64,000 bases of DNA, from assembly GCA_032718475.1 (NCBI GenBank), contig JAUCBJ010007043.1, positions 175,404 to 239,403 of the forward strand. The letters run 5' to 3'. The notes under the pieces were generated by a model. That model did not search any database, was not told the DNA's origin, and saw only the letters and a list, made by a program, of their open reading frames with translations. Both the position numbers and the translations under genes were made by a program. Origin of the DNA: Nemertoderma westbladi. Taxonomy: Eukaryota; Animalia; Xenacoelomorpha. Positions within the stretch are counted from its first letter, which is position 1. Each line of letters opens with the position of its first letter. Shown piece after piece: positions 5,931-59,831 of the stretch.

Positions 5931-6008
5931 TTTTTCAACTATTATTCCGACGGCAACGAACCTGCGATATTAGTAGATCATCCGGAGTCGCGAGAAGCGA
6001 TAAGATTC

Positions 6009-19772: not shown

Positions 19773-20276
19773 CTTTATAAACCAAACGTAAACCTTACTA
19801 TCTATATACACCATATAAACCCAACTTTATAAACCTAACGTATACAAATGTATACAGTGATTTATCAATAACACTACCAGCCTACCTGTACTGTAAAGCT
19901 TATCCTGGAAATATTATTATCTCATTGGACAATCCATCTTTCGAATACCCAATCAAAATTCTCAATATCGCTTTGCCAAAGCATTTAAAAAACCATCTTT
20001 CCTATACCACCAGGTAGTCATCATGTCAATACCTGAAAACACAGCATCTAAAATCGTTCGTTAAAGGAAGTGTGATAGTGCCTCAATTGGGTGAAACCAA
20101 CTTATAATTAGTTAAAATTATGCAATTCGTAGTGAAATAAATTCAGTGTATACAAAAATATACAGTCGGCCGGAAAGGGTTAAAGAATGTATTGATGACT
20201 GTTCTCTTATGTATGTATTCTATATATTTCAAGAATTTTATTTTCAAGATTTTATTTCAAGAATTTTATTTCAAAA

Positions 20277-24183: not shown

Positions 24184-24395
24184 TGTGACTGCTCTGGAAT
24201 AGGCCATGGCTCTGGTGATGGGATGATTGAGGTGATGTGACAGTACCGGTTCCTACTGTACTTATGTATAGCAGTATAGGCCTAGCGTTAGAATAGGAAG
24301 GACTGATTTATGCAAGTATGTGATTATTGTCTAAACCAATATATACATTATAGCATTATAGAACTGAGTATTATGTTATGTTATGATATTTCACA
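24184..24395 (+). repeat. Copia 5' LTR
   Basis: TGTGACTGCT...TATTTCACA; identical by eye to 29431-29642. Confidence 0.95.
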
Positions 24396-24657
24396 TTTGG
24401 TAGCAGAGCGTGGTTATCAGCAATAAGAAGATGTCTGGATGTGTAAATCGATGTACCGGTCACCCGGTAGATGTACAGATGTATGTATACTGGTATATGG
24501 CAAATCTGCAAATTGCAGAACTGGGAACTCTAAATTAGGCTAGACATAACTACAACTGTATTAGGCAGTTAGGCCTATTGCTATTAACGGCGCGGTGCCT
24601 GTTTGTTATTACAATTAATTGAATAGAATACGGTACCGGTACCTTCTAAGTTTTAAT

Positions 24658-27600
24658 ATGGCAACTGGAGGTACAGGTAGACCTACCGGTACAACTGGGA
24701 TGACTGGTGGTAGTGTAATGTGGAAGATTCCACCAGCGCTTAAAGATAAAGCCAGCAGGAATGAATATGAACAGTGGAAGTTCGACATAGAGGTATGGTC
24801 CGAACTAACAAGTTTACCAGCGGCAAAACATGGAATGGCGGTTTATTTGGAGTTGAAAGGTAAGCCTAAAGATGCTGTATCCTCACTTAGCGTTGATCAG
24901 GTAAAACAGGCTGACGGACTTGCTCATGTGTTACTGAAACTTGATAAGTTACATTTAAAAAAAGATTCACAGGCTGCGTATCAGTCTTATGCAGAATTTG
25001 AAGAATTTGTTAGAGATAAAGATAGTTCGATTGAGAATTTTGTTATCGATTTTGAGCGTCTTGTTGAAAAGATGAAAAAATACAAAATTGAATTACCTGG
25101 GCCTGTTTTAGCTTATAGGCTGTTAAAAAGTGCGAATATTCCTAGAGATAAAAAAGATTTGGCTCTGGCTACGACTACAGAAATAAATTATGAGGGAATG
25201 TCAGACACACTTTTGAGGATATATGACATTGTACTGCAAGGAAGTACCACTAGTGGTATTAGTGTGAGTGCTACCGGTAGTGGTACTGGAGGAAGAGAGG
25301 ATAAAATTAAGATTGAACCGGTGGATAGTGATGCAGAGATATTGTTTGTGAATCATCGTAGAGGAGGTTTTTATGGATCTAGGAGGGATCAAAGAGGTTG
25401 GGTTCAAAGGGGTAACTTTAATCGAGGTTCAGAACGGGGAAGATATTTACAACGAGGTCCGACATTGCAATTCAGAGGATCGGGTATCAGTACTGGTAGA
25501 TCTGGCCAACCTAGTTTCAGGGCTCGCCAAAATGTAGTTGATTCAAGTGGATATGTGCGACGTTGTTATAATTGCAACAGTACAGAACATTATGTGGCTC
25601 AATGTCCTGCACAGCAAGCTGTATTTCTTGCTGATAGTTATAGAGATAATGCAGATTTTAATGACAATTATGATAATACAAATGGAGAGAGAGTGTTTTA
25701 CACATTTTTTCAATCATGTGAGGGGATATCTTTAGGTGAAACTGTTAATGGGATCAGTAATGTTGATCGGCTTATGGAATCCGTGTCAGAGGTTGACTGC
25801 CTGTTTGTAAAGGAGGCTTTATCGTGTGCAATTATAGACACTGGCTGTACGCGTACAGTTTGTGGGCGAGATTGGTTGAATAGATACAGGGAAACTCTCA
25901 GTGAAGAAGATGATAGATTAATAGAAATTACATCTTGTTGCACACCTTTCAAATTTGGAGTTGGAAACCCTGTTATATCAGATACATTGGTTAAAATACC
26001 AGCATTTCTTAGGCATCTTTCAGTGTTTATAGAGTGTAATGTTGTTGACAATAATCTGCCATTACTATTAAGTAATACATCACTTAAAAAGGCTGGAGCT
26101 TCTTTATGTTTTACTACTAACACGATTGAACTTTTTGGTACCAAATTGAAATTAGATCTTACGTCCACAGGTCACTTTTGTTTACCGCTGAATAATTATC
26201 GTCGATCGATATCAAATATTCCTGATCAAAGACCAAAGTTGGTTTTTAAAGTGACCCCATTAAAAGATAAGAGTGATTCTGATTTAAGAAGTGATGTTCT
26301 TAAACTTCATCGTCAATTTGCACATGCAGATGCTATTAAATTGAAATCTCTCCTTAGAGATGCCAGGATTTTAGATAAGAGGCTTTCTTTGACAATTGAT
26401 GATGTATGTTCTGTTTGTGAGGTTTGTCAGAAATACAAAAAGCCTAAACCCCGACCTATTGTAGGGTTGAAGCGAGCACATGAGTTCAATGAGGTTGTGG
26501 CAATGGATCTGAAAGAAATTCGTCCGAGAGTATATATTCTTCATCTTATAGATTTAGCATCGAGATTTTCTGCAGCTTGTTTGATTTCAAATAAACAGAA
26601 GGATAGTGTCATTAAAGGTTTATTTAAGACATGGATATGGTGCTTTGGGGCTGCAAAGAAATTCATGTCTGATAATGGAGGGGAATTTTCTAATGAACAT
26701 TATAGAGACATGTGTCAGAATTTTAATATACAACTACAAGTATCGTCAGCAGAATCTCCATTCTCCAATGGGATAGTGGAGCGGCACAATGCTGTGTTAG
26801 CAGAAACTTTAGAGAGAACATATCAGGATTCAGGCTGTGATTTAGAAACTGCCTTATATTGGGCCCTAAGTGCCAAAAACTCACTTCAAATGGTACATGG
26901 TTATAGCCCTAATCAACTAGCCTTTGGCCGCAACCCTACTTTACCAAATGTGTTAGTCGATGAATTACCGGCTCTAGAAGGGAGAACCTGTAGTAAATTG
27001 GTTGGGTCGAATATCAATGCTATGCATTTAGCGAGAGAAAATTATATCAAAGCTGAATCTAGTGAGAAAATACGACGAGCATTGAGACATCAGGTACGTA
27101 CCAGCAATGACGTCAGTTATAATAATGGAGATAAGGTTTATTTTAGAAGAAATAAACATAAATATTGGAGTGGACCAGCTATTGTTCTAGGGCAAGAAGG
27201 TCAAACAGTTTTAGTTAAACATCAGTCTGAGTATTATCGAGTACATCCCTGTCATTTAAAGCATGTAAAATCTGTTACATTTGGACAAATGGATGACTTG
27301 CACAACCCTGTGGAGAAAAGTTCGAAGGAGGAAAGTGGAAGAGGTTCTATCGATAAGTCACCCCTGTCTGTTGTCAATACAGATATAAACGATTTCCAAT
27401 CGAAACAAATTGAGGTTCTTTCAGATAATGATACTGCTGTTCTAGATGAGGACAGCCAAGTTAACCATAATAATACAGAGAGATTAGTAGGATGTGATGA
27501 TGTGGCAATTCTGGAAAATAATGACAATAGTGAAATTACAGTTCAAGGTTCAATGAGTAAAGATGCGGAAATACATTCTTATAAGAATGGTTCAATAATC

Positions 27601-29325
27601 CCAAAGATTCGAAATACTGTTTTATTTCGACCGTATGAATCTGAACAATGGAAGGAAGGCAAGATATTAAGCAAACTCAAGTCAACTGGGAAGTATAATA
27701 CATTTGTAAACATTAAAGTTGCTGATGAAAAGGAGCCAAAATGTGTAGACTGGCCAGATTATGTGAGTCAATGGAAAATTAAAGATGAAACCTTAAACGA
27801 AGTTTTAGTAACCACTGTTACCCATAAAACTCATTCAGTGCAGGAAATAATGGATGCTAAGGTAAAAGAACTGACAAGTTGGAAAGAAAATGATGTTTAT
27901 TTGGAGGTTGATGAGATAGGTCAAGAAACTATTTCAATAAAATGGATATTAACAGAAAAAGAACTCAATGGTCATAAATTTGTGAAGGCAAGGCTTGTAG
28001 CAAGGGGCTTCGAAGAAATTACAGATGTTCGCTGTGATTCACCAACATGTAGTAAGGAAAGTTTTAGGATGGTTTTGGCCACAATAGTGAGCAACAACTG
28101 GGAACTCAAGTCATTTGATGTTCGTGCTGCCTTTTTACAGGGAAACCCTATTTCACGGGAAGTATATGTTCAGCCTCCAAAAGAATGTCACATTCCAGGG
28201 AAAATATGGAAACTAAAGAAATGCGTTTATGGATTGGTCGATGCGCCTAGAATGTGGTACACACGATTTAGGGACCAATTGTTAAAATAGGGCATGACTG
28301 TCAGTAAGATTGATCCGGCAATGTTTATTTACAAGATATCGGGTACATTACATGGAATTGCTGTGACCCATGTTGATGATATTGTTTACAGTGGTACAGA
28401 AGTTTTTGAGAGTCGGGTTATGAGGAAAGTTCGATCAACATTTCTATTGAGTCATGAAGAACTTGGTACCTTTAAATATATAGGCTTAGATTTGATTCAA
28501 ACAACTGAAGGTATAACTATTAGCCAAGACAACTATATACAAGAGCTACAGGAAATTGAGGTACCATCGCATCAGTACAGTGAAGATAAACTAAATGATA
28601 ATTGTAAAAAATCATTAAAAACTGTATTGGGACAACTCATGTGGATCTTCAATCAAACGAGACCAGATATTGGATATGAGATCTGCATTTCAAGTACTAA
28701 TATTAAAAATGCGACAATAAATGTAATACGTACAGTTAATAAGGTCATAAAGGATATTAAATACGAGAAACTGGATGTTTATTATCCCAATCTAGGATCT
28801 ATTGAAAATTGTATATTACAGGTGTATAGTGATGCATCATATGCGAATTTATCAGATGGATCATCACAGGGTGCATTCATTATATTTCTGACTAATCGAC
28901 GAGGTGTTTGTCTGCCATTGGCTTGGCAAAGCAGAAAATTACGAAGGGTGGTGAGGAGTACATTAGCTGCCGAAACGTTAGCTCTGGTGGAAGGGATAGA
29001 TGCTGCTGGAGAGATTTTAGCTATTGTGGAGGAAATTCATGGTGTTCAGCTCCCGTTGGTGTGTTTAATTGACAACAGAAGTCTATTTTCGGCAGTCCAA
29101 ACTACGAATGTCGTTCAGGATCGCGGTCTTAGGGTTGACATTGCCTTTCTCCGTCAGAAGGTAGAACGGCACGAGCTTGAAATTCTTTGGGTAGAAGCTA
29201 AAGAGCAAGTGGCGGACTCGCTGACCAAAAGAGGGGCGTCTAAAACTCTTCTACGTGGGGTATTGAAATCAGGGCAATTACAAAATCATTCTTATTTGGG
29301 ATGGTGTAATAAAACTAATGAGTAA
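24658..29325 (+). CDS. Copia gag-pol polyprotein with one in-frame TAG at 28288-28290
   Basis: CYNCNSTEHYVAQC knuckle; IIDTGC protease; HRQFAH...CEVC plus MDL/SDNGGEF/VER integrase; KARLVARGF, YGLVDAPR, HVDD RT; YSDAS...ADSLTK RNase H. Confidence 0.93.
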
Positions 29326-39335: not shown

Positions 39336-42300
39336 TACCCTTATACTATACCTGCACTCTCTACTGTATCCATAGTACCCTTATACTGTACTATACCTGC
39401 ACTCTCTACTGTATCCATAGTACCCTTATACTATACCTGCACTCTCTACTGTATCTATAGTACCCTTATACTATACCTGCACTCCCTACTGTATCTATAG
39501 TACCCTTATACTATACCTACACTCTCTACTGTATCTATAGTACCCTTATACTATACCTGCACTCTCTACTGTATCTATAGTACCCTTATACTATACCTGC
39601 ACTCCCTACTGTATCTATAGTACCCTTATACTATACCTACACTCTCTACTGTATCTATAGTACCCTTATACTATACCTGCACTCCCTACTGTATCTATAG
39701 TACCCTTATACTATACCTGCACTCTCTACTGTATCTATAGTACCCTTATACTATACCTGCACTCCCTACTGTATCTATAGTACCCTTATACTATACCTGC
39801 ACTCTCTACTGTATCTATAGTACCCTTATACTATACCTGCACTCCCTACTGTATCTATAGTACCCTTATACTATACCTGCACTCTCTACTGTATCTATAG
39901 TACCCTTATACTATACCTACACTCTCTACTGTATCTATAGTACCCTTATACTATACCTGCACTCTCTACTGTATCTATAGTACCCTTATACTATACCTGC
40001 ACTCTCTACTGTATCTATAGTACCGTTATACTATACCTGCACTCTCTACTGTATCTATAGTACCCTTATACTATACCTGCACTCTCTACTGTATCTATAG
40101 TACCCTTATACTATACCTGCACTCTCTACTATATCTATAGTATCCTTATACTATACCTGCACTCTCTACTGTACCTATAGTACCCTTATACTATATCTGC
40201 ACTCCCTACTGTATCTATAGTACCTTTATACTATACCTGCACTCTCTACTGTATCTATAGTACCCTTATACTATACCTGCACTCTCTACTCCCTCTATAG
40301 TACCCTTATACTATACCTGCACTCTCTACTCCATCTATAGTACCCTTATACTATACCTGCACTCCCTACTGTATCCATAGTACCCTTATACTATACCTGC
40401 ACTCTCTACTGTATCTATAGTACCGTTATACTATACCTGCACTCTCTACTGTATCTATAGTACCGTTATACTATACCTGCACTCTCTACTCCATCTATAG
40501 TACCCTTATACTATACCTGCACTCCCTACTGTATCTATAGTACCCTTATACTATACCTGCACTCTCTACTGTATCTATAGTACCCTTATACTATACCTGC
40601 ACTCCCTACTGTATCTATAGTACCCTTATACTATACCTGCACTCCCTACTGTATCTATAGTACCCTTATACTATACCTGCACTCTCTACTGTATCTATAG
40701 TACCGTTATACTATACCTGCACTCTCTACTGTATCTATAGTACCCTTATACTATACCTGCACTCTCTACTGTATCTATAGTACCCTTATACTATACCTGC
40801 ACTCTCTACTGTATCTATAGTACCCTTATACTATACCTGCACTCTCTACTGTATCTATAGTACCCTTATACTATACCTGCACTCTCTACTGTATCTATAG
40901 TACCCTTATACTATACCTGCACTCTCTACTGTATCTATAGTACCTTTATACTATACCTGCACTCTCTACTGCATCTATAGTACCGTTATACTATACCTGC
41001 ACTCTCTACTGTATCTATAGTACCCTTATACTATACCTGCACTCTCTACTGTATCTATAGTACCCTTATACTATACCTGCACTCTCTACTGTATCTATAG
41101 TACCCTTATACTATACCTGCACTCTCTACTGTATCTATAGTACCCTTATACTATACCTGCACTCTCTACTGTATCTATAGTACCCTTATACTATACCTGC
41201 ACTCTCTACTGTATCTATAGTACCCTTATACTATACCTGCACTCCCTACTGTATCTATAGTACCCTTATACTATACCTGCACTCTCTACTGTATCTATAG
41301 TACCCTTATACTATACCTGCACTCTCTACTGTATCTATAGTACCCTTATACTATACCTGCACTCTCTACTGTATCTATAGTACCCTTATACTATACCTGC
41401 ACTCTACTGTATCTATAGTACCCTTATACTATACCTGCACTCTCTACTGTATCTATAGTACCCTTATACTATACCTGCACTCTCTACTGTATCTATAGTA
41501 CCCTTATACTATACCTGCACTCTCTACTGTATCTATAGTACCCTTATACTATACCTGCACTCTCTACTGTATCTATAGTACCCTTATACTATACCTGCAC
41601 TCTCTACTGTATCTATAGTACCCTTATACTATACCTGCACTCTCTACTGTATCTATAGTACCCTTATACTATACCTGCACTCTCTACTGTATCTATAGTA
41701 CCCTTATACTATACCTGCACTCTCTACTGTATCTATAGTACCCTTATACTATACCTGCACTCTCTACTGTATCTATAGTACCCTTATACTATACCTGCAC
41801 TCTCTACTGTATCTATAGTACCGTTATACTATACCTGCACTCTCTACTCCATCTATAGTACCCTTATACTATACCTGCACTCTCTACTGTATCTATAGTA
41901 CCCTTATACTATACCTGCACTCTCTACTGTATCTATAGTACCCTTATACTATACCTGCACTCTCTACTGTATCTATAGTACCCTTATACTATACCTGCAC
42001 TCTCTACTCCATCTATAGTACCCTTATACTATACCTGCACTCCCTACTGTATCTATAGTACCCTTATACTATACCTGCACTCTCTACTGTATCTATAGTA
42101 CCCTTATACTATACCTGCACTCTCTACTGTATCTATAGTACCCTTATACTATACCTGCACTCTCTACTGTATCTATAGTACCCTTATACTATACCTGCAC
42201 TCTCTACTGTATCTATAGTACCCTTATACTATACCTGCACTCTCTACTGTATCTATAGTACCCTTATACTATACCTGCACTCTCTACTGTATCTATAGTA

Positions 42301-45300
42301 CCCTTATACTATACCTGCACTCTCTACTGTATCTATAGTACCCTTATACTATACCTGCACTCTCTACTGTATCTATAGTACCCTTATACTATACCTGCAC
42401 TCTCTACTGTATCTATAGTACCCTTATACTATACCTGCACTCTCTACTGTATCTATAGTACCCTTATACTATACCTGCACTCTCTACTGCATCTATAGTA
42501 CCCTTATACTATACCTGCACTCTCTACTGTATCTATAGTACCCTTATACTATACCTGCACTCTCTACTGTATCTATAGTACCCTTATACTATACCTGCAC
42601 TCTCTACTGTATCTATAGTACCCTTATACTATACCTGCACTCTCTACTGTATCTATAGTACCCTTATACTATACCTGCACTCTCTACTGTATCTATAGTA
42701 CCCTTATACTATACCTGCACTCTCTACTGTATCTATAGTACCCTTATACTATACCTGCACTCTCTACTGTATCTATAGTACCCTTATACTATACCTGCAC
42801 TCCCTACTGTATCTATAGTACCCTTATACTATACCTGCACTCTCTACTCCATCTATAGTACCCTTATACTATACCTGCACTCTCTACTGTATCTATAGTA
42901 CCCTTATACTATACCTGCACTCTCTACTCCATCTATAGTACCCTTATACTATACCTGCACTCCCTACTGTATCTATAGTACCCTTATACTATACCTGCAC
43001 TCTCTACTGTATCTATAGTACCCTTATACTATACCTGCACTCCCTACTGTATCTATAGTACCCTTATACTATACCTGCACTCTCTACTCCATCTATAGTA
43101 CCCTTATACTATACCTGCACTCTCTACTGTATCTATAGTACCCTTATACTATACCTGCACTCTCTACTGTATCTATAGTACCCTTATACTATACCTGCAC
43201 TCTCTACTGTATCTATAGTACCCTTATACTATACCTGCACTCCTACTGTATCTATAGTACCCTTATACTATACCTGCACTCTCTACTGTATCTATAGTAC
43301 CCTTATACTATACCTGCACTCTCTACTGTATCTATAGTACCCTTATACTATACCTGCACTCTCTACTGTATCTATAGTACCCTTATACTATACCTGCACT
43401 CTCTACTGTATCTATAGTACCCTTATACTATACCTGCACTCTCTACTGTATCTATAGTACCCTTATACTATACCTGCACTCTCTACTGTATCTATAGTAC
43501 CCTTATACTATACCTGCACTCTCTACTGTATCTATAGTACCCTTATACTATACCTGCACTCTCTACTGTATCTATAGTACCCTTATACTATACCTGCACT
43601 CTCTACTGTATCTATAGTACCCTTATACTATACCTGCACTCTCTACTGTATCTATAGTACCCTTATACTATACCTGCACTCTCTACTGTATCTATAGTAC
43701 CCTTATACTATACCTACACTCTCTACTGTATCTATAGTACCCTTATACTATACCTGCACTCTCTACTGTATCTATAGTACCCTTATACTATACCTGCACT
43801 CTCTACTGTATCTATAGTACCCTTATACTATACCTGCACTCTCTACTGTATCTATAGTACCCTTATACTATACCTGCACTCTCTACTGTATCTATAGTAC
43901 CCTTATACTATACCTGCACTCTCTACTTGTATCTATAGTACCCTTATACTATACCTGCACTCTCTACTGTATCTATAGTACCCTTATACTATACCTGCAC
44001 TCTCTACTGTATCTATAGTACCCTTATACTATACCTGCACTCTACTGTATCTATAGTACCCTTATACTATACCTGCACTCTCTACTGTATCTATAGTACC
44101 CTTATACTATACCTGCACTCCCTACTGTATCTATAGTACCCTTATACTATACCTGCACTCTCTACTGTATCTATAGTACCCTTATACTATACCTGCACTC
44201 CCTACTGTATCTATAGTACCCTTATACTATACCTGCACTCTCTACTGTATCTATAGTACCCTTATACTATACCTGCACTCTCTACTGTATCTATAGTACC
44301 CTTATACTATACCTGCACTCCCTACTGTATCTATAGTACCCTTATACTATACCTGCACTCTCTACTGTATCTATAGTACCCTTATACTATACCTACACTC
44401 TCTACTGTATCTATAGTACCCTTATACTATACCTGCACTCTCTACTGTATCTATAGTACCCTTATACTATACCTGCACTCTCTACTGTATCTATAGTACC
44501 CTTATACTATACCTGCACTCTCTACTGTATCTATAGTACCCTTATACTATACCTGCACTCTCTACTGTATCTATAGTACCCTTATACTATACCTGCACTC
44601 TCTACTGTATCTATAGTACCGTTATACTATACCTGCACTCTCTACTGTATCTATAGTACCCTTATACTATACCTGCACTCTCTACTGTATCTATAGTACC
44701 CTTATACTATACCTGCACTCTCTACTGTATCTATAGTACCCTTATACTATACCTGCACTCTCTACTGTATCTATAGTACCGTTATACTATACCTGCACTC
44801 TCTACTGTATCTATAGTACCCTTATACTATACCTGCACTCTCTACTGTATCTATAGTACCCTTATACTATACCTGCACTCTCTACTGTATCTATAGTACC
44901 CTTATACTATACCTGCACTCTCTACTGTATCTATAGTACCCTTATACTATACCTGCACTCTCTACTGTATCTATAGTACCCTTATACTATACCTGCACTC
45001 TCTACTGTATCTATAGTACCCTTATACTATACCTGCACTCTCTACTGTATCTATAGTACCCTTATACTATACCTGCACTCTCTACTCCATCTATAGTACC
45101 CTTATACTATACCTGCACTCTCTACTGTATCTATAGTACCCTTATACTATACCTGCACTCTCTACTGTATCTATAGTACCCTTATACTATACCTGCACTC
45201 TCTACTGTATCTATAGTACCCTTATACTATACCTGCACTCTCTACTGTATCTATAGTACCCTTATACTATACCTGCACTCTCTACTGTATCTATAGTACC

Positions 45301-48300
45301 CTTATACTATACCTGCACTCTCTACTGTATCTATAGTACCCTTATACTATACCTGCACTCCCTACTGTATCTATAGTACCCTTATACTATACCTGCACTC
45401 TCTACTGTATCTATAGTACCCTTATACTATACCTGCACTCTCTACTGTATCTATAGTACCCTTATACTATACCTGCACTCTCTACTGTATCTATAGTACC
45501 CTTATACTATACCTGCACTCTCTACTGTATCTATAGTACCCTTATACTATACCTGCACTCTCTACTGTATCTATAGTACCCTTATACTATACCTGCACTC
45601 TCTACTGTATCTATAGTACCCTTATTATAATAATGCAGGGTGGAAATTATCAAATGACAAACGCACACTGTCACCAAAACAGTAAATAATTGAATAATGA
45701 TTAATTTATTATATTATATACCTGCACTCTCTACTGTATCTATAGTACCCTTATACTATACCTGCACTCTCTACTGTATCTATAGTACCCTTATACTATA
45801 CCTGCACTCTCTACTCCATCTATAGTACCCTTATACTATACCTGCACTCTCTACTGTATCTATAGTACCCTTATACTATACCTGCACTCTCTACTCCATC
45901 TATAGTACCCTTATACTATACCTGCACTCTCTACTGTATCTATAGTACCCTTATACTATACCTGCACTCTCTACTGTATCTATAGTACCCTTATACTATA
46001 CCTGCACTCACTACTGTATCTATAGTACCCTTATACTATACCTACACTCTCTACTGTATATATAGTACCCTTATACTATACCTGCACTATCTACTGTATC
46101 TATAGTACCCTTATACTATACCTGCACTCCCTACTGTATCTATAGTACCCTTATACTATACCTGCACTCTCTACTGTATCTATAGTACCGTTATACTATA
46201 CCTGCACTCTCTACTGTATCTATAGTACCCTTATACTATACCTGCACTCTCTACTGTATCTATAGTACCCTTATACTATACCTGCACTCTCTACTGTATC
46301 TATAGTACCCTTATACTATACCTGCACTCTCTACTGTAACTATAGTACCCTTATACTATACCTGCACTCTCTACTGTAACTATAGTACCCTTATACTATA
46401 CCTGCTATCTACCGTATTTATAGTACCCTTATACTATACCTGCACTCTCTACTCCCTCTATAGTACCCTTATACTATACCTGCACTCTCTACTGTATCTA
46501 TAGTACCCTTATACTATACCTGCACTCTCTACTGTATCTATAGTACCCTTATACTATACCTGCACTCTCTACTGTATCTATAGTACCCTTATACTATACC
46601 TGCACTCTCTACTGTATCTATAGTACCCTTATACTATACCTGCACTCTCTACTGTATCTATAGTACCCTTATACTATACCTGCACTCTCTACTGTATCTA
46701 TAGTACCCCTTATACTATACCTGCACTCTCTACTGTATCTATAGTACCCTTATACTATACCTGCACTCCCTACTGTATCTATAGTACCCTTATACTATAC
46801 CTGCACTCTCTACTGTATCTATAGTACCCTTATACTATACCTGCACTCTCTACTCCATCTATAGTACCGTTATACTATACCTGCACTCTCTACTGTATCC
46901 ATAGTACCCTTATACTATACCTGCACTCTCTACTGTATCTATAGTACCCTTATACTATACCTGCACTCTCTACTGTATCTATAGTACCCTTATACTATAC
47001 CTGCACTCTCTACTCTATCTATAGTACCCTTATACTATATCTGCACTCTCTACTGTATCTATAGTACCCTTATACTATACCTGCACTCTCTACTGTATCT
47101 ATAGTACCCTTATACTATACCTGCACTCTCTACTCCCTCTATAGTACCGTTATACTATACCTGCACTCTCTACTGTATCTATAGTACCCTTATACTTTAC
47201 CTGCACTCTCTACTGTATCTATAGTACCCTTATACTATACCTGCACTCTCTACTGTATCTATAGTACCCTTATACTATACCTGCACTCTCTACTGTATCT
47301 ATAGTACCCTTATACTATACCTGCACTCTCTACTGTATCTATAGTACCCTTATACTATACCTGCACTCTCTACTGTATCTATAGTACCCTTATACTATAC
47401 CTGCACTCTCTACTGTATCTATAGTACCCTTATACTATACCTGCACTCTCTACTGTATCTATAGTACCCTTATACTATACCTGCACTCTCTACTGTATCT
47501 ATAGTACCCTTATACTATACCTGCACTCTCTACTGTATCTATAGTACCCTTATACTATACCTGCACTCTCTACTGTATCTATAGTACCGTTATACTTTAC
47601 CTGCACTCTCTACTGTATCTATAGTACCCTTATACTATACCTGCACTCTCTACTGTATCTATAGTACCCTTATACTATACCTGCACTCTCTACTGTATCT
47701 ATAGTACCGTTATACTTTACCTGCACTCTCTACTGTATCTATAGTACCCTTATACTATACCTGCACTCTCTACTGTATCTATAGTACCGTTATACTTTAC
47801 CTGCACTCTCTACTGTATCTATAGTACCCTTATACTATACCTGCACTCTCTACTGTATCTATAGTACCCTTATACTATACCTGCACTCTCTACTATATCT
47901 ATAGTACCCTTATACTATACCTGCACTCTCTACTGTATCTATAGTACCCTTATACTATACCTGCACTCTCTACTGTATCTATAGTACCCTTATACTATAC
48001 CTGCTCTCTCTACTGTATCTATAGTACCCTTATACTATACCTGAACTCTCTACTGTATCTATAGTACCCTTATACTATACCTGCTCTCTCTACTGTATCT
48101 ATAGTACCCTTATACTATACCTGCACTCTCTACTGTATCTATAGTAACGTTATACTTTACCTGCACTCTCTACTGTATCTATAGTAACGTTATACTATAC
48201 CTGCACTCTCTACTGTATCTATAGTAACGTTATACTATACCTGCACTCTCTACTGTATCTATAGTAACGTTATACTATACCTGCACTCTCTACTGTATCT

Positions 48301-50215
48301 ATAGTACCCTTATACTATACCTGCACTCCCTACTGTATCTATAGTACCCTTATACTATACCTGCACTCTCTACTGTATCTATAGTACCGTTATACTTTAC
48401 CTGCACTCTCTACTGTATCTATAGTACCCTTATACTATACCTGCACTCTCTACTGTATCTATAGTACCGTTATACTTTACCTGCACTCTCTACTGTATCT
48501 ATAGTACCCTTATACTATACCTGCACTCTCTACTGTATCTATAGTACCCTTATACTATACCTGCACTCTCTACTATATCTATAGTACCCTTATACTATAC
48601 CTGCACTCTCTACTGTATCTATAGTACCCTTATACTATACCTGCACTCTCTACTGTATCTATAGTACCCTTATACTATACCTGCACTCTCTACTGTATCT
48701 ATAGTACCCTTATACTATACCTGCACTCCCTACTGTAACTATAGTACCCTTATACTATACCTGCACTCTCTACTATATCTATAGTACCCTTATACTATAC
48801 CTGCACTCTCTACTGTATCTATAGTACCCTTATACTATACCTGCACTCTCTACTATATCTATAGTACCCTTATACTATACCTGCACTCTCTACTGTATCT
48901 ATAGTACCCTTATACTATACCTGCACTCTCTACTGTATCTATAGTACCCTTATACTATACCTGCACTCTCTACTATATCTATAGTACCCTTATACTATAC
49001 CTGCACTCTCTACTGTATCTATAGTACCCTTATACTATACCTGCACTCTCTACTGTATCTATAGTACCCTTATACTATACCTGCACTCTCTACTGTATCT
49101 ATAGTACCCTTATACTATACCTGCACTCTCTACTGTATCTATAGTACCCTTATACTATACCTGCACTCTCTACTGTATCTATAGTACCGTTATACTTTAC
49201 CTGCACTCTCTACTGTATCTATAGTACCCTTATACTATACCTGCACTCTCTACTGTATCTATAGTACCGTTATACTTTACCTGCACTCTCTACTGTATCT
49301 ATAGTACCCTTATACTATACCTGCACTCTCTACTGTATCTATAGTACCCTTATACTATACCTGCACTCTCTACTATATCTATAGTACCCTTATACTATAC
49401 CTGCACTCTCTACTGTATCTATAGTACCCTTATACTATACCTGCACTCTCTACTGTATCTATAGTACCCTTATACTATACCTGCACTCTCTACTGTATCT
49501 ATAGTACCCTTATACTTTACCTGCACTCTCTACTGTATCTATAGTACCCTTATACTATACCTGCACTCTCTACTCTATCTATAGTACCCTTATACTATAC
49601 CTGCACTCTCTACTGTATCTATAGTAACGTTATACTTTACCTGCACTCTCTACTGTATCTATAGTACCCTTATACTATACCTGCTCTCTCTACTGTATCT
49701 ATAGTACCCTTATACTATACCTGCTCTCTCTACTGTATCTATAGTACCCTTATACTATACCTGCTCTCTCTACTGTATCTATAGTACCCTTATACTATAC
49801 CTGCACTCTCTACTGTATCTATAGTAACGTTATACTTTACCTGCACTCTCTACTGTATCTATAGTACCCTTATACTATACCTGCTCTCTCTACTGTATCT
49901 ATAGTACCCTTATACTATACCTGAACTCTCTACTGTATCTATAGTACCCTTATACTATACCTGCTCTCTCTACTGTATCTATAGTACCCTTATACTATAC
50001 CTGCACTCTCTACTGTATCTATAGTAACGTTATACTTTACCTGCACTCTCTACTGTATCTATAGTAACGTTATACTATACCTGCACTCTCTACTGTATCT
50101 ATAGTAACGTTATACTATACCTGCACTCTCTACTGTATCTATAGTAACGTTATACTATACCTGCACTCTCTACTGTATCTATAGTACACTTATACTATAC
50201 CTGCTATCTACCGTA
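39336..50215. repeat. 40-bp satellite TACCCTTATACTATACCTGCACTCTCTACTGTATCTATAG, ~270 copies
   Basis: Highly homogeneous array with one ~90-bp interruption at ~45626-45716. Confidence 0.98.
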
Positions 50216-51631
50216 CTTATTTACCTTTGCTGCAAATCTCTTGCAAATATCGACATGAACATCCCAGAACAAATTAAGTAAATTATAGTCAATCGGAGTG
50301 CCGAAGTCATAATTCCAGGAAGTTGCTTTTAAACCTGTGGTACAATGATTGAATGATATAATGAATGGTATACAATGATTATTATCGTGACTTTAAGAAA
50401 TTTCTAAGTACCAGCACACTCTATAATGATCAGAGATAAACATTCACTACTTTGATTTAATCCAATCTGATACTTTGACAGCGCTGCCCGACGTTATATA
50501 TTTTATTCACCTACTGTAGACACATAGACTCATGACTATATTGCACATCTGTCACATATCAGTCAGTATGAGTCACCACCAACAACTACTTTGTTCATAT
50601 TCACATGGTGTGCCTCAGTAAAATTCAAATTATATGTTATAATATAAATAGTACAGCGCAAGTTTATGAGCTAATGTTGATCTACTTGGTCGAAATCCGT
50701 TTTGGCTCGTATGTAGCAGTTTCTATATGTGAGGCCTAATTCTAATCCATCATTTTATTGTATATTTTGGTAGCTACCACAAGCAGACAGATCACACGAT
50801 AGTTTGTTATGGTACACCGAAGTCTCCTTTCATGGGGAGAGGCTTTAGTTGACTTTTATTCAGAATTGGCCTCTTTGCCTACTCTATAGATACGACCAGC
50901 CAAGCTTCTGCAAAGCCCCTAAATTTAGTGGGCCAGTTATTTCTCTCAGTTAGAATCCCTGAAACAATATATATAAAGACTCGAAAGTACTCGTCCCTAA
51001 CTAAAATGTTGTCCCCTTTTCAGATGAGACAAATAAAAATTTAATAGCTCCAGTAGTTATCGAGATACTGTATGAGATGTTCCTGGCACCCATTCCATAC
51101 AATTTCAGAACTTTCGGAATTGATTGTAACGAGTTGTATCGTGATCAGCGACCTTGAAATCCAGTGTATCTTCAGAAATATCAAACCTAAGGCAAAATCT
51201 TTTTGACAGTTTCTAATTTTTTGATACCTGTACTTTTCATTGTGGAGGACCTAAATAACACAAAAAATGATGGTTGCATCGCCATAAAATATTTTTAACA
51301 AGTTTTATCGTTATCAGCGACCTCTTAAACCCTTATACCATCAAAATTGAAATTTTTGAGTTATATAAAAAATTTATAAAATGAGTCCCTTTAACAGGCT
51401 GAGATAACTCCCCACCAAACATGACTCCCCAGTCGTCTCAGCCTAGGCTGAGAACACTAGTCAGTCGTCTCAGCCTAGGCGGAGAACACCTCCCAGTCTT
51501 CTCACCTTAGGCTGTGAAAACTCCATTTAGGCTGAGATAACTCCCCTCTAGTTGCAAAAAAATGTTTATTTGTGGGGCGAGCCACGAAGTGAGCGAAGCC
51601 TTAGCATATGGGTGCCATTGGCGAGTTGTCT

Positions 51632-51667
<36 letters not shown>

Positions 51668-51845
51668 TGAGTAAAGTGCTGGCTAAGTAAAGACGAGGTC
51701 ATACCAGATCTACTTTTCTGGCAACCAACCCATGGAAAGCGTAGTCGTGGACGACCGGCCATAACATCAGATAGGGGGGGAAACTGGACACACACATAAA
51801 AATATCTCTCCAGGGGAAACTGGACGCAAATCCCAGAAATGGTGA

Positions 51846-52316
51846 ATTTGGGATTTGGATTTTGGTAATAAGGAATTTGGGAATAAGGAATTTGGGATTT
51901 GGGAATAAGGTATTTGGAATAAGGTATTTGGGATTTGGGAATAAGGTGTTTGGGATTTGGGAATAAGGTATTTGGGATTTGGGATTAAGGGATTTGGGAA
52001 TAAGGCATTTGGGATTTGGGAATAAGGTATTTGGGATTTGGGAATAAGGTATTTGGGATTTGGGAATAAGGTATTTGGGATTTGGGAATAAGGTATTTGG
52101 GATTTGGGAATAAGGTATTTGGGATTTGGGAATAAGGTATTTGGGATTTGGGAATAAGGGATTTGGGATTTGGGAATAAAGTATTTGGGATTAAGGTATT
52201 TGGGATTTGGGAATACGGTATTTGGGATTTGGGAATAAGGTATTTGGGATTTGGGATTAAGGTATTTGGGATTTGGAATTAAGGTATTTGGGATTTGGGA
52301 ATAACGAATTTGGGAT
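51846..52316 (+). repeat. Left subterminal array (TTTGGGATTTGGGAATAAGGTA)n
   Basis: 22/15-bp units; inverted counterpart at 57210-57620. Confidence 0.95.
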
Positions 52317-53399
52317 CTGCCATTATTGGTTCTCTGAAGAAGATAAGCAATGCCAATCTCATTACGCCTCTCCTCAACAAGTCAACCCCACCGACTAGCG
52401 GCTCTGGCTGTTTCCGCTGACGGGTCTCAGTTGAACAACGCGTCCTTTGGGATCTGGGATTTGGGATTAACGTTTTTTGTTTATATTTCAACAAACGAAC
52501 AAAGATTATATAAATGAATACTGTAGAGTTATTGCCCAGGCCAAATGACCTTTACACGACCTATGGTCAAGCATATTGTTCGATCTTCCTTGGACATGTG
52601 GTATGTACAGTAATACATATTTGTGCCATTAAACGTTAATCTTCTATGAACCTAATATCCTCCTTAGTCAATTGGCAGAGGTAATTATTATTGGTTTCAC
52701 AGTGGCTGACTGATTTCCCCGTTCCTTTGGGGTGGTTGTGTGTATTAGAGCAAACACTAGCATATCTCACCTCAGCTCAGCCCAGCCTATCGTTGCTAAG
52801 ACAACACCCTATCAGAATACATGCTGTTTCTGTTGGTAGCAGTGTAAGAACAGGAGACACACCTGAAGTTAAACATGTCTCTCACTGCTCAGCACACTAT
52901 CCCAGGTTATCACTGCAGTCTGGCAGTACAGCGCTGCAGTACAGTGGTATTATATTGATTTTTATAGAAATGTATTTCCAGCTGAGAATACTATATTACA
53001 GTTCTGCAGTTCGCCCATGTGAATAATACCAGGATTTCACTTTTCGGTCGACTTTTTATTGGAAATTTATATATTAAGATTTTTTATTTTTTTTAATGTA
53101 TCTTTATTAAGTGTTTCACAGCGCTTATTTCTGTCTTAAAACCTGTACATGTACTAATTCGTTTATTGTTTTGGTTAGATTCAGCCCTTCTGTAACCTGT
53201 GTTTTTGGTGAAAACCTGGTATTCTTCACATGGGGGTAACTGCAAAGTGAAATATAACGGCAGAAAGTCTGGTATTCTTCACATGGGCCCTGCAGTTTGC
53301 AGTTGAATAATACTAGTAGTAGTGTTTTATTATTAGTTTTTTAAGAGGCGTTTTCGTTAAGATATTCAATTATCTTAATATTTAATTTTCATACTTTCT

Positions 53400-54591
53400 T
53401 TGGTGATGTTTTGCTGTGGGTTTCGCATGAAGACTATTGAGATTAGAGCAGATTGGTATGGAGAAAGTGGCAAAAAAGAATTTGTTGGGGTGCGATATAA
53501 ATGTAGGGGAAATTCTCGACAATTTGTGAAGGGTTGTGGAAGAAATTTAAAGCCTGGATTAACCATAACTGAGTCCACATTTGAGTATACTAATTTTGCC
53601 AATGATGCAATTGTATTTTGGGTGACAAATGTTAGTGTGTTTTCAAAATCTTTATTGAATCGATTTATAAGAGAATTGCACGTATTTGGTGCTACATTTG
53701 ATGCTATTGCGATTAATTACCGAATAGAAAAAGGTTGTGAGATAGAAAAACATTTATTATCCCAGGCTTTAGTCATGTATCGAATGCTGCAGTTCCATGT
53801 TATATGTAATTTACCTCCTATATTACAAAAATCATCTGTTTGACATAGAGACATTTCTGGAAGGTAGTGGCTATGCTTCACATATTGATGAGTTACTACA
53901 CAATAATCATTTAAATTGTAATGTTCCGAAATGTTCAGATGTAATTGTCGTTGATGGAAATTATAAGCTTTTTCGAGGTATGTGTGGCAGGCCTCTAGAT
54001 AACGGCGACGTTTGTGATTCTTCTGTAAAATTAGAAGCCGATGGCATGGTTAGGTGCAAAATACATGGACCAGTTTCCAAACCTACAAAATCCTCAGAGT
54101 GCGATCTTCAACGTACAGATATGGAGTGTTCAAAAGTAGTGCCGAAGTTTTCAGGCCGTACATGTGGTGTTCTATTTGGGGTTAGGTCATGCGGATATGT
54201 CGAGTCATTTGCTGAAATGTCAAAAAAGGAAAGTCTGAAACAAGTTGCTGATTTTATAAGCGTTGACTATAAGGATACCAAATTAATAATTTATGATTAT
54301 GCATGTGGACTTGATAAGTACGTAACTAGCCGTCGTCCCCATGAATGGTTGTTCATGGTAGATAAATTCCATGTAAAAGGCCATAAATCACCAGAGTGTA
54401 AACCTGCTGGAGTCAATTACTTTTCTCATTCAAAGTTTCTGGAATACGAGCACATTAATTCTTCTGCAGCTGAACAATTTAACAAAAAGGCCAATCGTTC
54501 GAAGTCTACACTTAACTTTTGTTCGAAAAATATGTTTTACTTTTTCCTGCGATCTTATATAGTTTTCTATAATACATATATATTGCATTAA
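53400..54591 (+). CDS. CxC5/CxC6-KDZ transposase, frameshifted near 53825
   Basis: Cys-rich N-terminus and ATFDAIAINY; VVDGNYK, CGYV...ES, IYDYAC, VDKFHVKGH...C, NSSAAEQFN catalytic motifs of KDZ transposases. Confidence 0.82.
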
Positions 54592-54708
54592 ACTTTGTTT
54601 TTCCCTACTAATACTTTTCATAATATAATAATTTCATAATAATATGTCGGTACATTAAATACAATTCGCATAATACCGGGTACTGTATTATTATATATAT
54701 TATGGAAG

Positions 54709-55899
54709 ATGTCTAAACTGCTGCAATATACAACGAATAAATCTCAATCTGCTGGTTGTACAAGTGGGCAGATAGCTATTCAGTTGATAAGTGCAACGTC
54801 AGTTATAATGGGAAAAGCAACAGTTAAACTTACCGATAATTGGTATGAGCCAGTCTTGGTATGGGCATGTAATATAGCGCAAAGTGGCTCCAATAAAAGT
54901 GCCGGGAGTAATGAATTGTGTGAAAGCATGAGGTTATTTGATGACGTGGGATACTATACTGACTTTACTATTGAAAAACTTTTGGCTGATCTGTCAACTA
55001 AAAACAGTAGAGCAACTTTGTTTTACGACGAGGGAAAACTATTCTTAAACCAAACAGGAAGAGACAAGGCTCTGAAATCACGGGCACATTTGAATAGTCT
55101 GTATGGGGGTGGTTCAGTAGTTAAAGATACTGTAAGTGGTGGCAAAATGGAAACTGAGTCTACGCGAGTTGCTGTGTTGATGAATATACAGCCGGGCCCA
55201 TTCATAGATAAATTATTGGGAGATGATAACAATGATGGTTTAGCATCACGATTTTTATTGGCCTTTAAAGAAGATCGCGAAGTGAGAACGTTTGAAAGTT
55301 TGAAATCTATTCCAAAGTTATCGACTAAAATCGCTGATATAATAAGCGCTGTACATAATTCTGCAGAGGGGATGGAATTTGTCTTTTCAGAAAATGCTGA
55401 ACAAGAGTTTGCAGCATTCCACAATGATCACGAAGAAAGAATTAAAAGCCGTGATACAATGAAAGTAGATGTGATTCGCGATGCATTAAGTAAGAATAAA
55501 GGTATGGTGTCACGTATTAGTGCATGCATTCATGTCCTTGAACTGGTCTTCAGTGGGATACCTATTGATAATGAAATAATGGGCAGCGATATTCAATACG
55601 CTATTGAACTGGTTCAGAATAGTGAGAATGCTCTTACAGTTCTAAGTGAATTAGGATACAACATACATGAAGAAGAAAAAAGTAAAGATCTTATCAACAA
55701 TTTAAAACGTATTGTCGACAAAACACTTAAGGCCAACAAGAGCTTTACATACCAGACAATGAACGATCGTTGTTCTTCAATGCTAAAAGCTTTCAATATA
55801 TCATCTGAAGAAGAATGGATATCACTTATGCAACGTCATGGTTTCGTGAAATCCCAAACGCTTAGAGGAAATAGGATTTGTTTCCAAGTTGAACAGTAA
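54709..55899 (+). CDS. DUF3987-like P-loop NTPase/helicase-like protein
   Basis: WYEP..VW...AQSGSNKS (variant Walker A), FTIEKL, TLFYDEG (Walker B), NIQP, DGLASRFL (Arg finger); 396 aa, intact, intronless. Confidence 0.75.
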   Translation: MSKLLQYTTNKSQSAGCTSGQIAIQLISATSVIMGKATVKLTDNWYEPVLVWACNIAQSGSNKSAGSNELCESMRLFDDVGYYTDFTIEKLLADLSTKNSRATLFYDEGKLFLNQTGRDKALKSRAHLNSLYGGGSVVKDTVSGGKMETESTRVAVLMNIQPGPFIDKLLGDDNNDGLASRFLLAFKEDREVRTFESLKSIPKLSTKIADIISAVHNSAEGMEFVFSENAEQEFAAFHNDHEERIKSRDTMKVDVIRDALSKNKGMVSRISACIHVLELVFSGIPIDNEIMGSDIQYAIELVQNSENALTVLSELGYNIHEEEKSKDLINNLKRIVDKTLKANKSFTYQTMNDRCSSMLKAFNISSEEEWISLMQRHGFVKSQTLRGNRICFQVEQ

Positions 55900-56059
55900 A
55901 TTCTAACTAATTTCATATCTATCTATGTATCACATTGTTATACTGTAATTCATATATATATCAGGCTTATAACTCATATATAGAGGCATATTATACTCTT
56001 CTACCTCAAGTCATTTATCGGTAAATCCGCATTTCATTTTTGTATTCATGCATATGCCT

Positions 56060-57209
56060 TTGTAACCCATTCTTTTACTAACCTGCATAAACACGTGACA
56101 CGTGTTATCTTTCGTTTATTGTTTTGGTTCTATCTACATGCTTCCGTAACCTGCTCCTTTACTAACCTGCATAATCTTGTAACACGTGTTAACTATCGTT
56201 TATTGTTTTGGTTCTATCTACAGGCCTCTGTAACCAGCTCCTTTACTAACCTGCATAATATTGTAACACGTGTTAACATTAACTATCTTTTCTTGTTTTT
56301 GTTTTATCTGCCCGCCTCTGTAACCTGCTCATTTACTAACCTGCATAATCTTGTAACACGTGTTAACTATAGTTTATTGTTTTGGTGCTATCTACATGCC
56401 TCTGTAACCAGCTCCTTTACTAACCTGCATAATCTTGTAACACGTATTAACTATCGTTTATTGTTTTGGTTCTATCTGCCCGCCTCTGTAACCTGCTCCT
56501 TTACTAACCTGCATAATCTTGTAACACGTGTTAACTATCGTTTATTGTTTTGGTTCTATCTACCCGCCTCTGTAACCTGCTCCTTTACTAACCTGCATAA
56601 TCTTGTAACACGTGTTAACTATCGTTTATTGTTTTGGTTCTATCTACCCGCCTCTGTAACCTGCTCCTTTACTAACCTTCATAATCTTGTAACACGTGTT
56701 AACAATCGTTTATTGTTTTGGTTCTATCTGCCCGCCCCTGTAACCTGCTCCTTTACTAACCTGCATAATCTTGTAACACGTGTTAACTATCGTTTATTGT
56801 TTTGGTTCTATCTGCCCGCCTCTGTAACCTGCTCCTTTACTAACGTGCATAATCTTATAACACGTGTTAACTGTCGTTTATTGTTTTGATTCTATCTGCC
56901 TGCCTCTCTAACCTGCTCCTTTACTAACCTGCATAATCTTGTAACATGTGTTAACTATCGTTTATTGTTTTGGTTCTTTCTACCCGCCTCTATATCCTGC
57001 TCCTTTACTAACCTGCATAATCTTGTAACATGTGTTAACTATCGTTTATTGTTTTGGTTCTTTCTACCCGCCTCTATATCCTGCTCCTTTACTAACCTGC
57101 ATAATCTTATAACATGTGTTAACTATCGTTTATTGTTTTGGTTCTATCTACATGCCTCTGTAATCTGCTCCTTACTAACCTGCATAATCTTATAACATGG
57201 GTTAACTAT
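56060..57209. repeat. 84-bp tandem repeat, ~13 copies, inside the KDZ element
   Basis: ACTAACCTGCATAATCTTGTAACACGTGTTAAC... with period 84. Confidence 0.95.
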
Positions 57210-57620
57210 CCCAAGTACCTTATTCCCAAATCCCAAATACCTTAATCCCAAATACCTTAATCCCAAATACCTTAATCCCAAATACCTTATTCCCAAATCC
57301 CAAATACCTTATTCCCAAATCCCAAATACCTTAATCCCAAATACCTTATTCCCAAATACCTTAATCCCAAATACCTTATTCCCAAATCCCAAATACCTTA
57401 ATCCCAAATCCCAAATACCTTATTCCCAAATCCCAAATACCTTAATCCCAAATCCCAAATACCTTATTCCTAAATACCTTAATCCCAAATACCTTAATCC
57501 CAAATACCTTATTCCCAAAACCCAAATACCTTATTCCCAAATCCCAAATACCTTAATCCAAATACATTATTCCCAAATCCCAAATACCTTAATCCCAAAT
57601 TCCTTAATCCCAAATCCCAC
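57210..57620 (-). repeat. Right subterminal array, inverse of the left
   Basis: (TACCTTATTCCCAAATCCCAAA)n. Confidence 0.95.
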
Positions 57621-57906
57621 ATGGTATTTGCGTCCAGTTTCCCCCCCTGTCTCCATAACATATATAGATCAACTTGAAAGGGATACTGAACTTGGGAGAA
57701 ACGAAATTGCGACAACTATGGAGAATCGGGTAGCCTGGAAGGATCTCATTTCCACTGTCCGAGTTCGCTCGACTTAGTAGTAGTAGTAGTTATCAGCCTA
57801 AGCTAAGATAACTGGGGAGTGTTCTCGTTTTGGCGGCGCAATTTTGCCGACAAGCCGGCACAGCATTCCCGGAGTTGCAATGCAGCATGCCGATCCTAGT
57901 AGTAGT

Positions 57907-58350
57907 ATGGTGATTGATTTTAAAGAATGTATTGATGACTGTTCTCTCATGTATGTATTCTATATATTTCAACTGCTTATGTTTTTCACTATGTTCACCA
58001 TAGCAACACCGGCGACTCAAATTCTAATACGTTCTGTAAAATCCCATCAACAAAGTTTGGCATTGGGAATTAATAACATAGCATTTAAGTTGTTGGGGTC
58101 TATCCCCGGGCCTATTGTTATGGGAGCTTTACTCGACTATGCCTGTGATATTTGGTTGACATCATGCACCGGCGACACAAATTGCCTGTCATACGACAAT
58201 ATTAGGTTGTCAAGATACTTTGTTATTCTTGGAATGTCTTGCAACCTTATCATCCTCATTGTTTTCATCATCACTTACTTTGTTTATAAACCACCACCAC
58301 AGAAGTCTGATGATGTAGACCACGGCAGGGACGACAACACTAGGCTGTGA
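57907..58350 (+). pseudogene. SLCO/OATP C-terminal fragment (copy 2, lacks the NCSC segment)
   Basis: Nearly identical to 20322-20765; homology begins at ATGGTGATTGAT. Confidence 0.85.
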
Positions 58351-59831
58351 CGTCACCCATCACATATTGTGGGGCGAGCCACGAAGTGAGCGAAGCCTTA
58401 GCATATGGGTGCCATTGGCGAGTTGTCTGTCGTCGTCGTCTGTCATCGTCGTCGTAAATTTTTGATCGCAATAACTCGGTTATTCTTTGATGAAATTAAA
58501 CGAAACTTGGTATGTATATAGTCCATCAAAAGTTTAGAAATAATCTGAAGTTTGGTCAAAAACGAACAAACGCAACGAGGCACAAGAGGAGGGCGAGTTT
58601 GTGTTGAAGACTTCTGACTAACGACAGACAACACGTTAATGGTGCCCATATGCTAAAGGCTTTGCTCACTTCCAGTGCTGCGCGAAGGCCCCCACGAACG
58701 TGTATGAATACAGAATGGTTAGAAAATATATTAGTTCTTTTAATTTCATGTTTTCATACCCATATAGTAGTGACTAGGAAATGATGAAATACAAATTTAA
58801 TTTTGTAATAATATGGTCCCGTTAATTAGGAAAAATAATATCGAAATTGTCAATTGATTATTATTTATTGGTGTGTTCGCGCTTTCAGACCTTTAGCAGT
58901 TTAACCTGCCAATTTTAGGTGTCCTCTTGTTTATAAATCGACTTTAGCCTATAACAATTATTTAGTGCACATGAAGTAACATTAGCCGAAGCCAGTCTAT
59001 GCGCGATCATTCACCCACTGTTAAGGGAGACTGGATTCGGGTGCTTTGAAAGTTATTGCGGTGCAGACCTACTGTATTATTCGATTGATCGTTACTATAT
59101 AATCTCTGACAATATTATTCACTTTCGGGGAAATATTAACAGTTCCTTTAGGACTTGGCGCTTTAAGTATATAAACAGAGTTATGACTTATACTAAACAC
59201 AACTAGATGGCTATTGAGTTTCGTAAATAGCGCATTCTTTAAGAGATGCTTTATTATCTGTCACACTACTGCACACTACTTCACAATACTTCACACTGAT
59301 CTGCCGACCGTCACTGAATTTGATCATATATAAGGAGGATAGCAACTGACACATGTAGGGATTATGAAATAGCATTTAATTCACACAAAACCACTGTAAG
59401 TCGCAATTGCTACCGGTAACCGGTCCCTCTTACCTTCAGTAATCAAGAAGATTGGGGGTTTTATGATTATTTATCGGTATTCTCCAAATATATCAACAAT
59501 ATATCCATATAACAACAATTAATAACAGACAGTAAACAGAAGTAAAATAATGCGGTGAAAGTCAGTATGTCGGTAGGTGCCGAGTAATGTTCCCAGTCAG
59601 ATAATAGATTTACGTTCTTGTAATCAAAGCCGTCTAATGTTGGCCAAAGTCTGAAACTTCTACAGAAGCACAGAAGAATTTCTAAGCCAATGTTCCGAGG
59701 CTCAGAAAAGGTAAACAAAAACCGTAATGCATTTACATAGGCCCTTGTCCAACATAAAATGAAAATCGCTCTGATTGGATGAGCCGAACAAAGAGAGGTT
59801 CCACATTTACAGTAAATCAGCTGACAGATTT

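Follow-up and report, generated by a model that had tools for sequence, protein, structure and literature searches.

To our knowledge, eukaryotic cut-and-paste transposons rarely encode an ATP-driven motor, AcademH being an example that can be cited. The AcademH helicase belongs to superfamily 2 and is not an MCM-like AAA+ protein. In IS21, Mu and Tn7, an AAA+ ATPase (IstB, MuB and TnsC, respectively) is encoded by a gene separate from that of the DDE transposase. Regarding the elements with KDZ-type transposases, the available portions of the published descriptions report multi-exonic proteins of up to 1400 amino acids for Zisupton (PMC12730594, PMC9297572), 7-bp target-site duplications (TSDs), CA..TG ends and no terminal inverted repeats (TIRs) for Kyakuja (PMC12730594), and 8-bp TSDs for Dileera (PMC12730594). 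The DUF3987 proteins are presented, in the accessible part of a survey, as a family of superfamily 6 (SF6), remote relatives of MCM that bear a winged helix at the C-terminus, are frequently linked to primases and are reported from no eukaryotic virus (PMC4889955); according to a partly accessible second source, one member is an oligomer-forming 5'-3' helicase (PMC11724360). The element studied here lies in a stretch of 64,000 nucleotides (the window) from the xenacoelomorph Nemertoderma westbladi (GCA_032718475.1, contig JAUCBJ010007043.1, positions 175,404 to 239,403) and is a DNA transposon that carries a KDZ-type transposase gene (ORF1, for open reading frame 1) together with a DUF3987 gene (ORF2) encoding a predicted MCM-like helicase. 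As suspected in an earlier note made from the letters of this DNA, we could not find a KDZ element with a DUF3987 or helicase gene described in the literature, Repbase and Dfam lying outside the scope of the search; the combination thus appears undescribed, and the family could be present, unrecognised, among Repbase entries. The terms DUF3987, helicase, ATPase and MCM have no match in the available supplement text of PMC12730594.

The earlier note had placed the element between two 22-bp TIRs and an exact 8-bp TSD, and these ends are confirmed (Table 1). The TSD 8-mer is identical on both sides (chance ~3e-5 at one fixed position) and the TIRs match at 20 of their 22 positions, the mismatches being positions 1 and 5. 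The element termini read CA..TC and a further partial copy of the TIR core is found at ~51812-51832. A 9-bp TSD was considered and rejected as less parsimonious: one extra base matches, yet the TIRs become asymmetric. No Rfam match was found in 51300-58500. The insertion had also been read as the clean split of an RTE reading frame. The frame does rejoin, since in silico excision of the element with one TSD restores a single flanking frame, but this frame is only a fragment of ~70 codons from the 3' end of a long interspersed nuclear element (LINE), which we take to be an RTE from its C-terminal motif. Contigs from four sequencing runs (X1-X4) were compared with the window; X1, X2 and X3 represent 2 samples and 2 studies, and one of them may be the source of the window. 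In all four runs, loose ends behind 51767 go straight into the sequence found at 57662, which means that other copies of the host LINE, an element of very high copy number (depth up to 6e5 in X1), have the empty site. In X3, a 71-nt contig starts exactly at 51768 with a depth of 193, equal to that of the element interior, and another contig has 17 other letters ahead of this position, which points to other insertion sites of the element. No contig bridging the window's own junction 51767/51768 was found among those listed, and this insertion is unconfirmed in those runs. The ends, the TSD and the empty site show, for the element, the products of transposition.

Both genes are present in sister copies. 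In X1, a 2179-nt contig (depth 202) spans ORF1 and most of ORF2 and differs from the window by 2 letters and a 26-nt gap, and a 1833-nt contig from X2 also spans ORF1 and most of ORF2; the two genes therefore share the same contig and the same depth. The coupling of a KDZ transposase with a P-loop DUF3987 protein in a TIR transposon, which the earlier note had proposed from one copy, is thus carried by several near-identical copies. X4 covers parts of the element without ORF1, which is not taken as absence. The depth of the element interior is 11.7, 9.7 and 6.6 times that of one flank contig of 1.65-1.71 kb taken as single-locus, a rough ratio that is not a copy number (as the tool itself warns) and that hints at about ten near-identical copies. 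On this hint, the family would be young and both genes would have been amplified together.

Table 1. Coordinates of the element, its target site and its parts in the window
Feature	Position	Strand	Description
KDZ-DUF3987 DNA transposon	51768-57653		two co-oriented genes, TIRs, TSD
TSD, left copy, 8 bp	51760..51767	+	exact match to right copy; empty site in other LINE copies
TSD, right copy, 8 bp	57654..57661	+	exact match to left copy
Left TIR, 22 bp	51768..51789	+	inverted match to right end
Right TIR, 22 bp	57632..57653	-	inverted match to left end
Host LINE 3' fragment, split by element	51671..57790	+	break at 51767/57662; short trinucleotide tail after it
ORF1, 5' part, 145 aa	53406..53843	+	CxC5-like cysteine cluster; ends at frameshift behind 53838
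ORF1, 3' part, 250 aa	53839..54591	+	KDZ transposase core
ORF2, 396 aa	54709..55899	+	DUF3987 MCM-like AAA+ domain and predicted C-terminal winged helix
Left subterminal array	51846..52316	+	period 22, 7-nt core, 22.4 copies
Right subterminal array	57208..57619	-	inverse of left array
Nested miniature inverted-repeat transposable element (MITE)	53012..53289	.	~21-bp TIRs, own 8-bp TSD, very high copy
84-bp tandem array	56056..57210	+	13.7 copies, 91% matches

Contrary to the earlier note, the window copy is not complete: ORF1 is divided into two different frames (53406-53843 and 53773-54591). In contigs from X1, X2 and X3, 26 additional bases behind 53838, present at full local depth, join these frames; read by eye, they contain no stop, which leaves ~403 codons open in the sister copies. 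The break in the window could be either a deletion or an assembly error. Since its ORF1 is frameshifted, the window copy would depend for its movement on transposase provided in trans. At five sites listed in ORF1 and ORF2, the window differs from all covering runs and four of these differences are non-synonymous, as expected of a decaying copy, an assembly error being also possible.

The Pfam KDZ match of ORF1 (18.1 bits) is under the curated cut-off of 26.6 and no Pfam CxC match was found in it, so that its KDZ membership rests on its relatives and on our own profiles. A phmmer search with ORF1 gave 195 matches (best E 5e-16, 38% identity). Among the 30 relatives scanned first, 26 match KDZ at E<=0.01, several of them with CxC5 or CxC4, and the 3' part of ORF1 reaches 130 bits against the profile of the relatives. 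In an alignment of 30 sequences (the window and 29 selected relatives), ORF1 keeps all 16 invariant columns, which include D-x-x-C, D-x-x-H-x-x-x-H and N/E motifs. Its conserved acidic residues have their codons at 53953 (D), 54295 (D), 54361 (D) and 54472 (E), and the D, D, D-x-x-H and E residues of the KDZ core are all found. Compared with the two group profiles, the 5' part reaches 25.5 bits for CxC5 (14 proteins) and -0.5 for CxC4 (13 proteins); in a shuffle control it obtained 24.9 bits, the top of 1000 shuffles being 7.7. A tree was built from 46 catalytic cores, with one relative dropped because it lacks the motif and no named reference elements included; the window protein has a long branch in it that falls between the CxC4 and CxC5 groups. 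Judged by sequence, ORF1 is best classed as a divergent CxC5-type KDZ transposase not assignable to Zisupton, Dileera or Kyakuja. No coding match was found upstream of ORF1, a PDB sequence search returned no solved structure related to the KDZ transposase, and nothing was found when the KDZ alignments were compared with viral contigs. KDZ proteins of 1170-3340 amino acids were not found by word-index search, which is weak evidence. In a subgroup of the KDZ relatives (P0017, P0022, P0064 and P0123), a chromodomain is inserted into the transposase.

ORF2 is co-oriented with ORF1, 117 bp separating the ORF1 stop from the ORF2 ATG, as the earlier note had described. It matches the Pfam DUF3987 family (PF13148) with 116.8 bits, over the cut-off, PHROG 2373 'DNA helicase' with E 4e-18, and the DUF3987 clusters of the ESM Atlas with a score of 0.97. 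Aligned with 33 bacterial DUF3987 proteins (the 30 best loci and 3 more, for a total of 34 rows), to which it is 15-20% identical, ORF2 keeps the six residues that are invariant in the family, which cover Walker A, Walker B and the putative arginine finger: K63 in Walker A, E108 in Walker B, Q161, G177, R181 and K262. For Q161, R181 and K262, the roles are assumed by analogy with MCM. Such a low identity, yet with all six invariant residues, argues for a long selection on what would be an ATPase function. A fold model of ORF2 built with the bacterial DUF3987 rows has a predicted local distance difference test (pLDDT) of 85 and a predicted template modelling score (pTM) of 0.82; the fold obtained from the single sequence (pLDDT 34) was not used. 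When the model was compared with 48,161 chains, ranks 1-11 were all MCM proteins (Z 19.6 to 15.6), the first with a root-mean-square deviation (rmsd) of 3.3 over 250 aligned residues, followed by RavA, BchI, BrxL and ComM at Z 13.7-11.7. All the listed Foldseek matches in the PDB are MCM complexes and the viral fold matches are DUF3987 proteins and primase-helicases. ORF2 is thus predicted to have an MCM-class AAA+ fold, and the P-loop nature that the earlier note had attributed to it is borne out by alignment, model and structure comparison. In residues 348-394, the model has helices and then a beta-hairpin (pLDDT 58-77), and the profile weakly matches the FadR winged helix (E 0.49). An attempt to model ORF2 in complex with the 3' part of ORF1, made without alignments, gave no answer (score 0.00). 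Searches for close relatives of ORF2 gave little: none was found by word-index search, by tblastn against phages and plasmids or by a pattern search of viral and genome contigs, a degenerate DUF3987 motif scan had 0 matches, PDB sequence searches returned nothing significant, and weak matches were limited to 12 of 401 bacterial genomes.

The structural comparison also bears on the analogy with IS21, Mu and Tn7 that the earlier note had drawn. In such a role, comparable to that of IstB, MuB and TnsC, the ORF2 ATPase would act in target selection or activation: it would coat or remodel target DNA and recruit the transposase without unwinding. These proteins belong to the same AAA+ superfamily, the model does match TnsC (Z 8.8, rmsd 3.3, 125 aligned residues) and MuB (Z 8.7, rmsd 4.1, 143 aligned residues), the arrangement and spacing of the two co-oriented genes would be suitable, and several matches of the MCM clade are not helicases (RavA and BchI at Z 13). 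Nevertheless, the Z of the MCM helicases is twice as high, their alignments extend over 250-273 residues versus 125-143 for TnsC and MuB, and the single DUF3987 protein that has been tested unwinds DNA, according to the accessible part of its description (PMC11724360). The analogy is weakened in that ORF2 seems to be of the MCM/SF6 type, TnsC and MuB not being its nearest matches, which makes a target-selection ATPase an unlikely explanation.

On balance, it is somewhat probable that this KDZ element moves by cut-and-paste and that its second gene encodes a ring helicase, driven by ATP, which aids the transposase at the element ends or at the donor site. In this scenario, the KDZ-type transposase would cut at the terminal repeats and paste with an 8-bp duplication. 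Its binding sites would be the TIRs and, inside them, the inverted arrays of a 7/22-bp unit, the 7-mer of which has 38 forward copies in the left array (5 elsewhere in the window) and 29 reverse copies in the right one (4 elsewhere in the window), so that these subterminal arrays are a candidate binding array. Through its putative winged helix, the helicase would load on the element ends or the cut donor site and unwind DNA or translocate on it, and this activity may aid excision, the disassembly of the complex or a template-directed refilling of the donor site; its role in transposition is inferred. No primase or polymerase frame was found in the element and ORF2 has no N-terminal primase part; any copying would thus use host enzymes. 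The same repeats invite another interpretation, namely an extrachromosomal or replicative intermediate: the terminal arrays would contain an origin, to be opened by the helicase, and the element would be copied by host polymerases ahead of its integration. Short iteron-like repeats are indeed present at both ends, the best viral fold matches include primase-helicases, and DUF3987 proteins have been proposed, in the portions of the literature available, as replicative helicases of phages and integrative elements. Yet the missing primase and polymerase parts speak against such an intermediate, and the TIRs and 8-bp TSD fit ordinary DDE transposition, so that it appears very unlikely.

The rest of the noncoding part of the element is made up of a nested MITE and a tandem array. 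The MITE reaches depths of 1e5-5e5 in X1-X3, with loose ends at 53012 and 53289; its junctions look shared among the sister copies, the contigs crossing each of them by only ~25 letters. Approximately 40 bp of the 84-bp array unit resemble the MITE interior. A frame of 301 amino acids (55984-56889) was rejected as a gene because it is this array read through.

Beyond N. westbladi, a gene model from Brachionus calyciflorus (CAF1043593.1) joins the C-terminal part of DUF3987 (E 2e-5) to a KDZ domain, and the ESM Atlas contains eukaryotic DUF3987 clusters, with 175 and 71 members, in which rotifers dominate. These data allow a wider proposal, that of an undescribed transposon lineage spread across animal phyla whose transposition would depend on a phage-derived MCM-like ring helicase and which, as a eukaryotic motor system made up of a transposase and an AAA+ protein, may couple cut-and-paste to local unwinding and copying; we advance it tentatively, as it falls a little short of probable. 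Several observations speak against a helicase acting as partner of the transposase and, in part, against a general pairing. The rotifer model is a single and partial one, in which the helicase part comes first, that is, in the opposite order to the window. In the catalytic-core tree, the rotifer transposase is not the sister of the window protein, so that a single origin of the pairing is not shown. No DUF3987 frame was found next to the closest transposase relative (P0001) in its 3.3-kb locus (L001), which covers 1.07 kb upstream and 0.95 kb downstream and does not reach the ends of the element, and the partner was found in 0 of 3 short metagenome loci, this one included. Within the family, part of the sister contigs have a 1-nt deletion in ORF2 at 55494; the four polymorphic ORF2 sites among those listed are all synonymous (p ~0.013), a thin signal of selection among copies, and two of them appear to lie on the contig with that deletion (at the same depth in X2). 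Lastly, the ORF2 fold model reflects the bacterial family whose rows went into it. Besides these points, a DUF3987 part was present in 1 of 185 KDZ-related proteins examined, namely this rotifer model, a test that separate genes would escape, and no relatives of the N-terminal part of the rotifer model were found by word-index search. The locus of P0001 ends in a ~73-bp tandem array (L001:3050-3324), like the 84-bp array of the window element.

Several of these observations would also suit an ORF2 that is cargo, i.e. a functional, or recently functional, helicase gene from a mobile or virus-like element that has no role in transposition and was captured repeatedly by KDZ lineages. The absence of a partner near P0001 and the separate positions of the window and rotifer transposases are compatible with repeated capture, and KDZ elements do have varied cargo such as TET/JBP, as far as the available text of PMC12730594 goes. 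In X2, a joint 52919 -> 55752 reveals an internally deleted derivative without the genes, though it fits any non-autonomous copy. Nevertheless, ORF2 is open over 396 codons and has lost none of its six invariant residues, searches of viral and bacterial sequences brought up no close relative, and the pair recurs in the rotifer gene model, so that cargo is, in our view, about as improbable as the target-selection ATPase. A helicase that would take part in transposition is the explanation preferred here.

The remainder of the window contains other mobile or duplicated sequences. Four neighbouring frames on the minus strand of 45-2959 presumably belong to a Polinton-like element; one of them weakly matches an adenovirus-type protease (PF00770, 21.6 bits) and the others have no Pfam match. 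Two open frames, at 5922-7877 (plus strand, 652 amino acids) and 23023-24252 (minus strand, 410 amino acids), have no Pfam match at E 0.001. The pol region of a Copia-type long terminal repeat (LTR) retrotransposon (zf-CCHC, rve, RVT_2) occupies 24619-29322, with one in-frame stop near 28288, and ~10 kb at 40001-50000 with a constant and strong GC skew near -0.6 probably correspond to a satellite array. Similar coding pieces of an OATP transporter C-terminus are found at 57802-58350 and 20199-20762, each beside the same 89-bp repeat (58367 and 20782), which suggests a local duplication.

If the preferred explanation is true, the presence in an animal KDZ transposon of an MCM-class helicase known from phages and integrative elements would connect eukaryotic transposition with replication modules of prokaryotes and would account for the rotifer DUF3987 genes. 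As the family is compact (two short genes), with defined ends and open-frame sister copies, it offers a direct test case for the requirements of KDZ transposases.

Compared with known systems, the element resembles AcademH in being a eukaryotic DNA transposon with a helicase gene, the trait that defines that lineage in the accessible part of its description (PMC10045372), but AcademH has a transposase of another superfamily and 9-10-bp TSDs, whereas the window element is KDZ-type and has an 8-bp TSD with symmetric TIRs. With IS21, Mu and Tn7 it has in common a DDE transposase and a separate AAA+ ATPase gene; those systems are prokaryotic, and the predicted ORF2 fold is much nearer to MCM than to TnsC or MuB. 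The KDZ-type transposase core, the TIRs, the 8-bp TSD and the animal host are shared with Zisupton, from which the family differs by a transposase with a CxC5-like start and, in the sister copies, what would be a single frame of ~403 codons, and by its helicase gene, which is not mentioned in the available portions of the Zisupton descriptions (PMC12730594, PMC9297572). In fungal Kyakuja and Dileera, too, the element contains accessory genes in addition to that of the KDZ transposase, and Dileera has an 8-bp TSD as well. Contrary to Kyakuja, the window element has 22-bp TIRs, an 8-bp TSD and CA..TC ends, and the accessory gene, which is TET/JBP in the fungal elements according to the accessible text (PMC12730594), is here DUF3987. 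Finally, ORF2 shares with the DUF3987 helicases of phages and integrative elements its domain, its motifs, its predicted fold and, possibly, a C-terminal winged helix, but the known members are, in the available parts of the sources (PMC4889955, PMC5862659, PMC11724360), prokaryotic and usually tied to a primase, whereas ORF2 stands alone beside a eukaryotic transposase.

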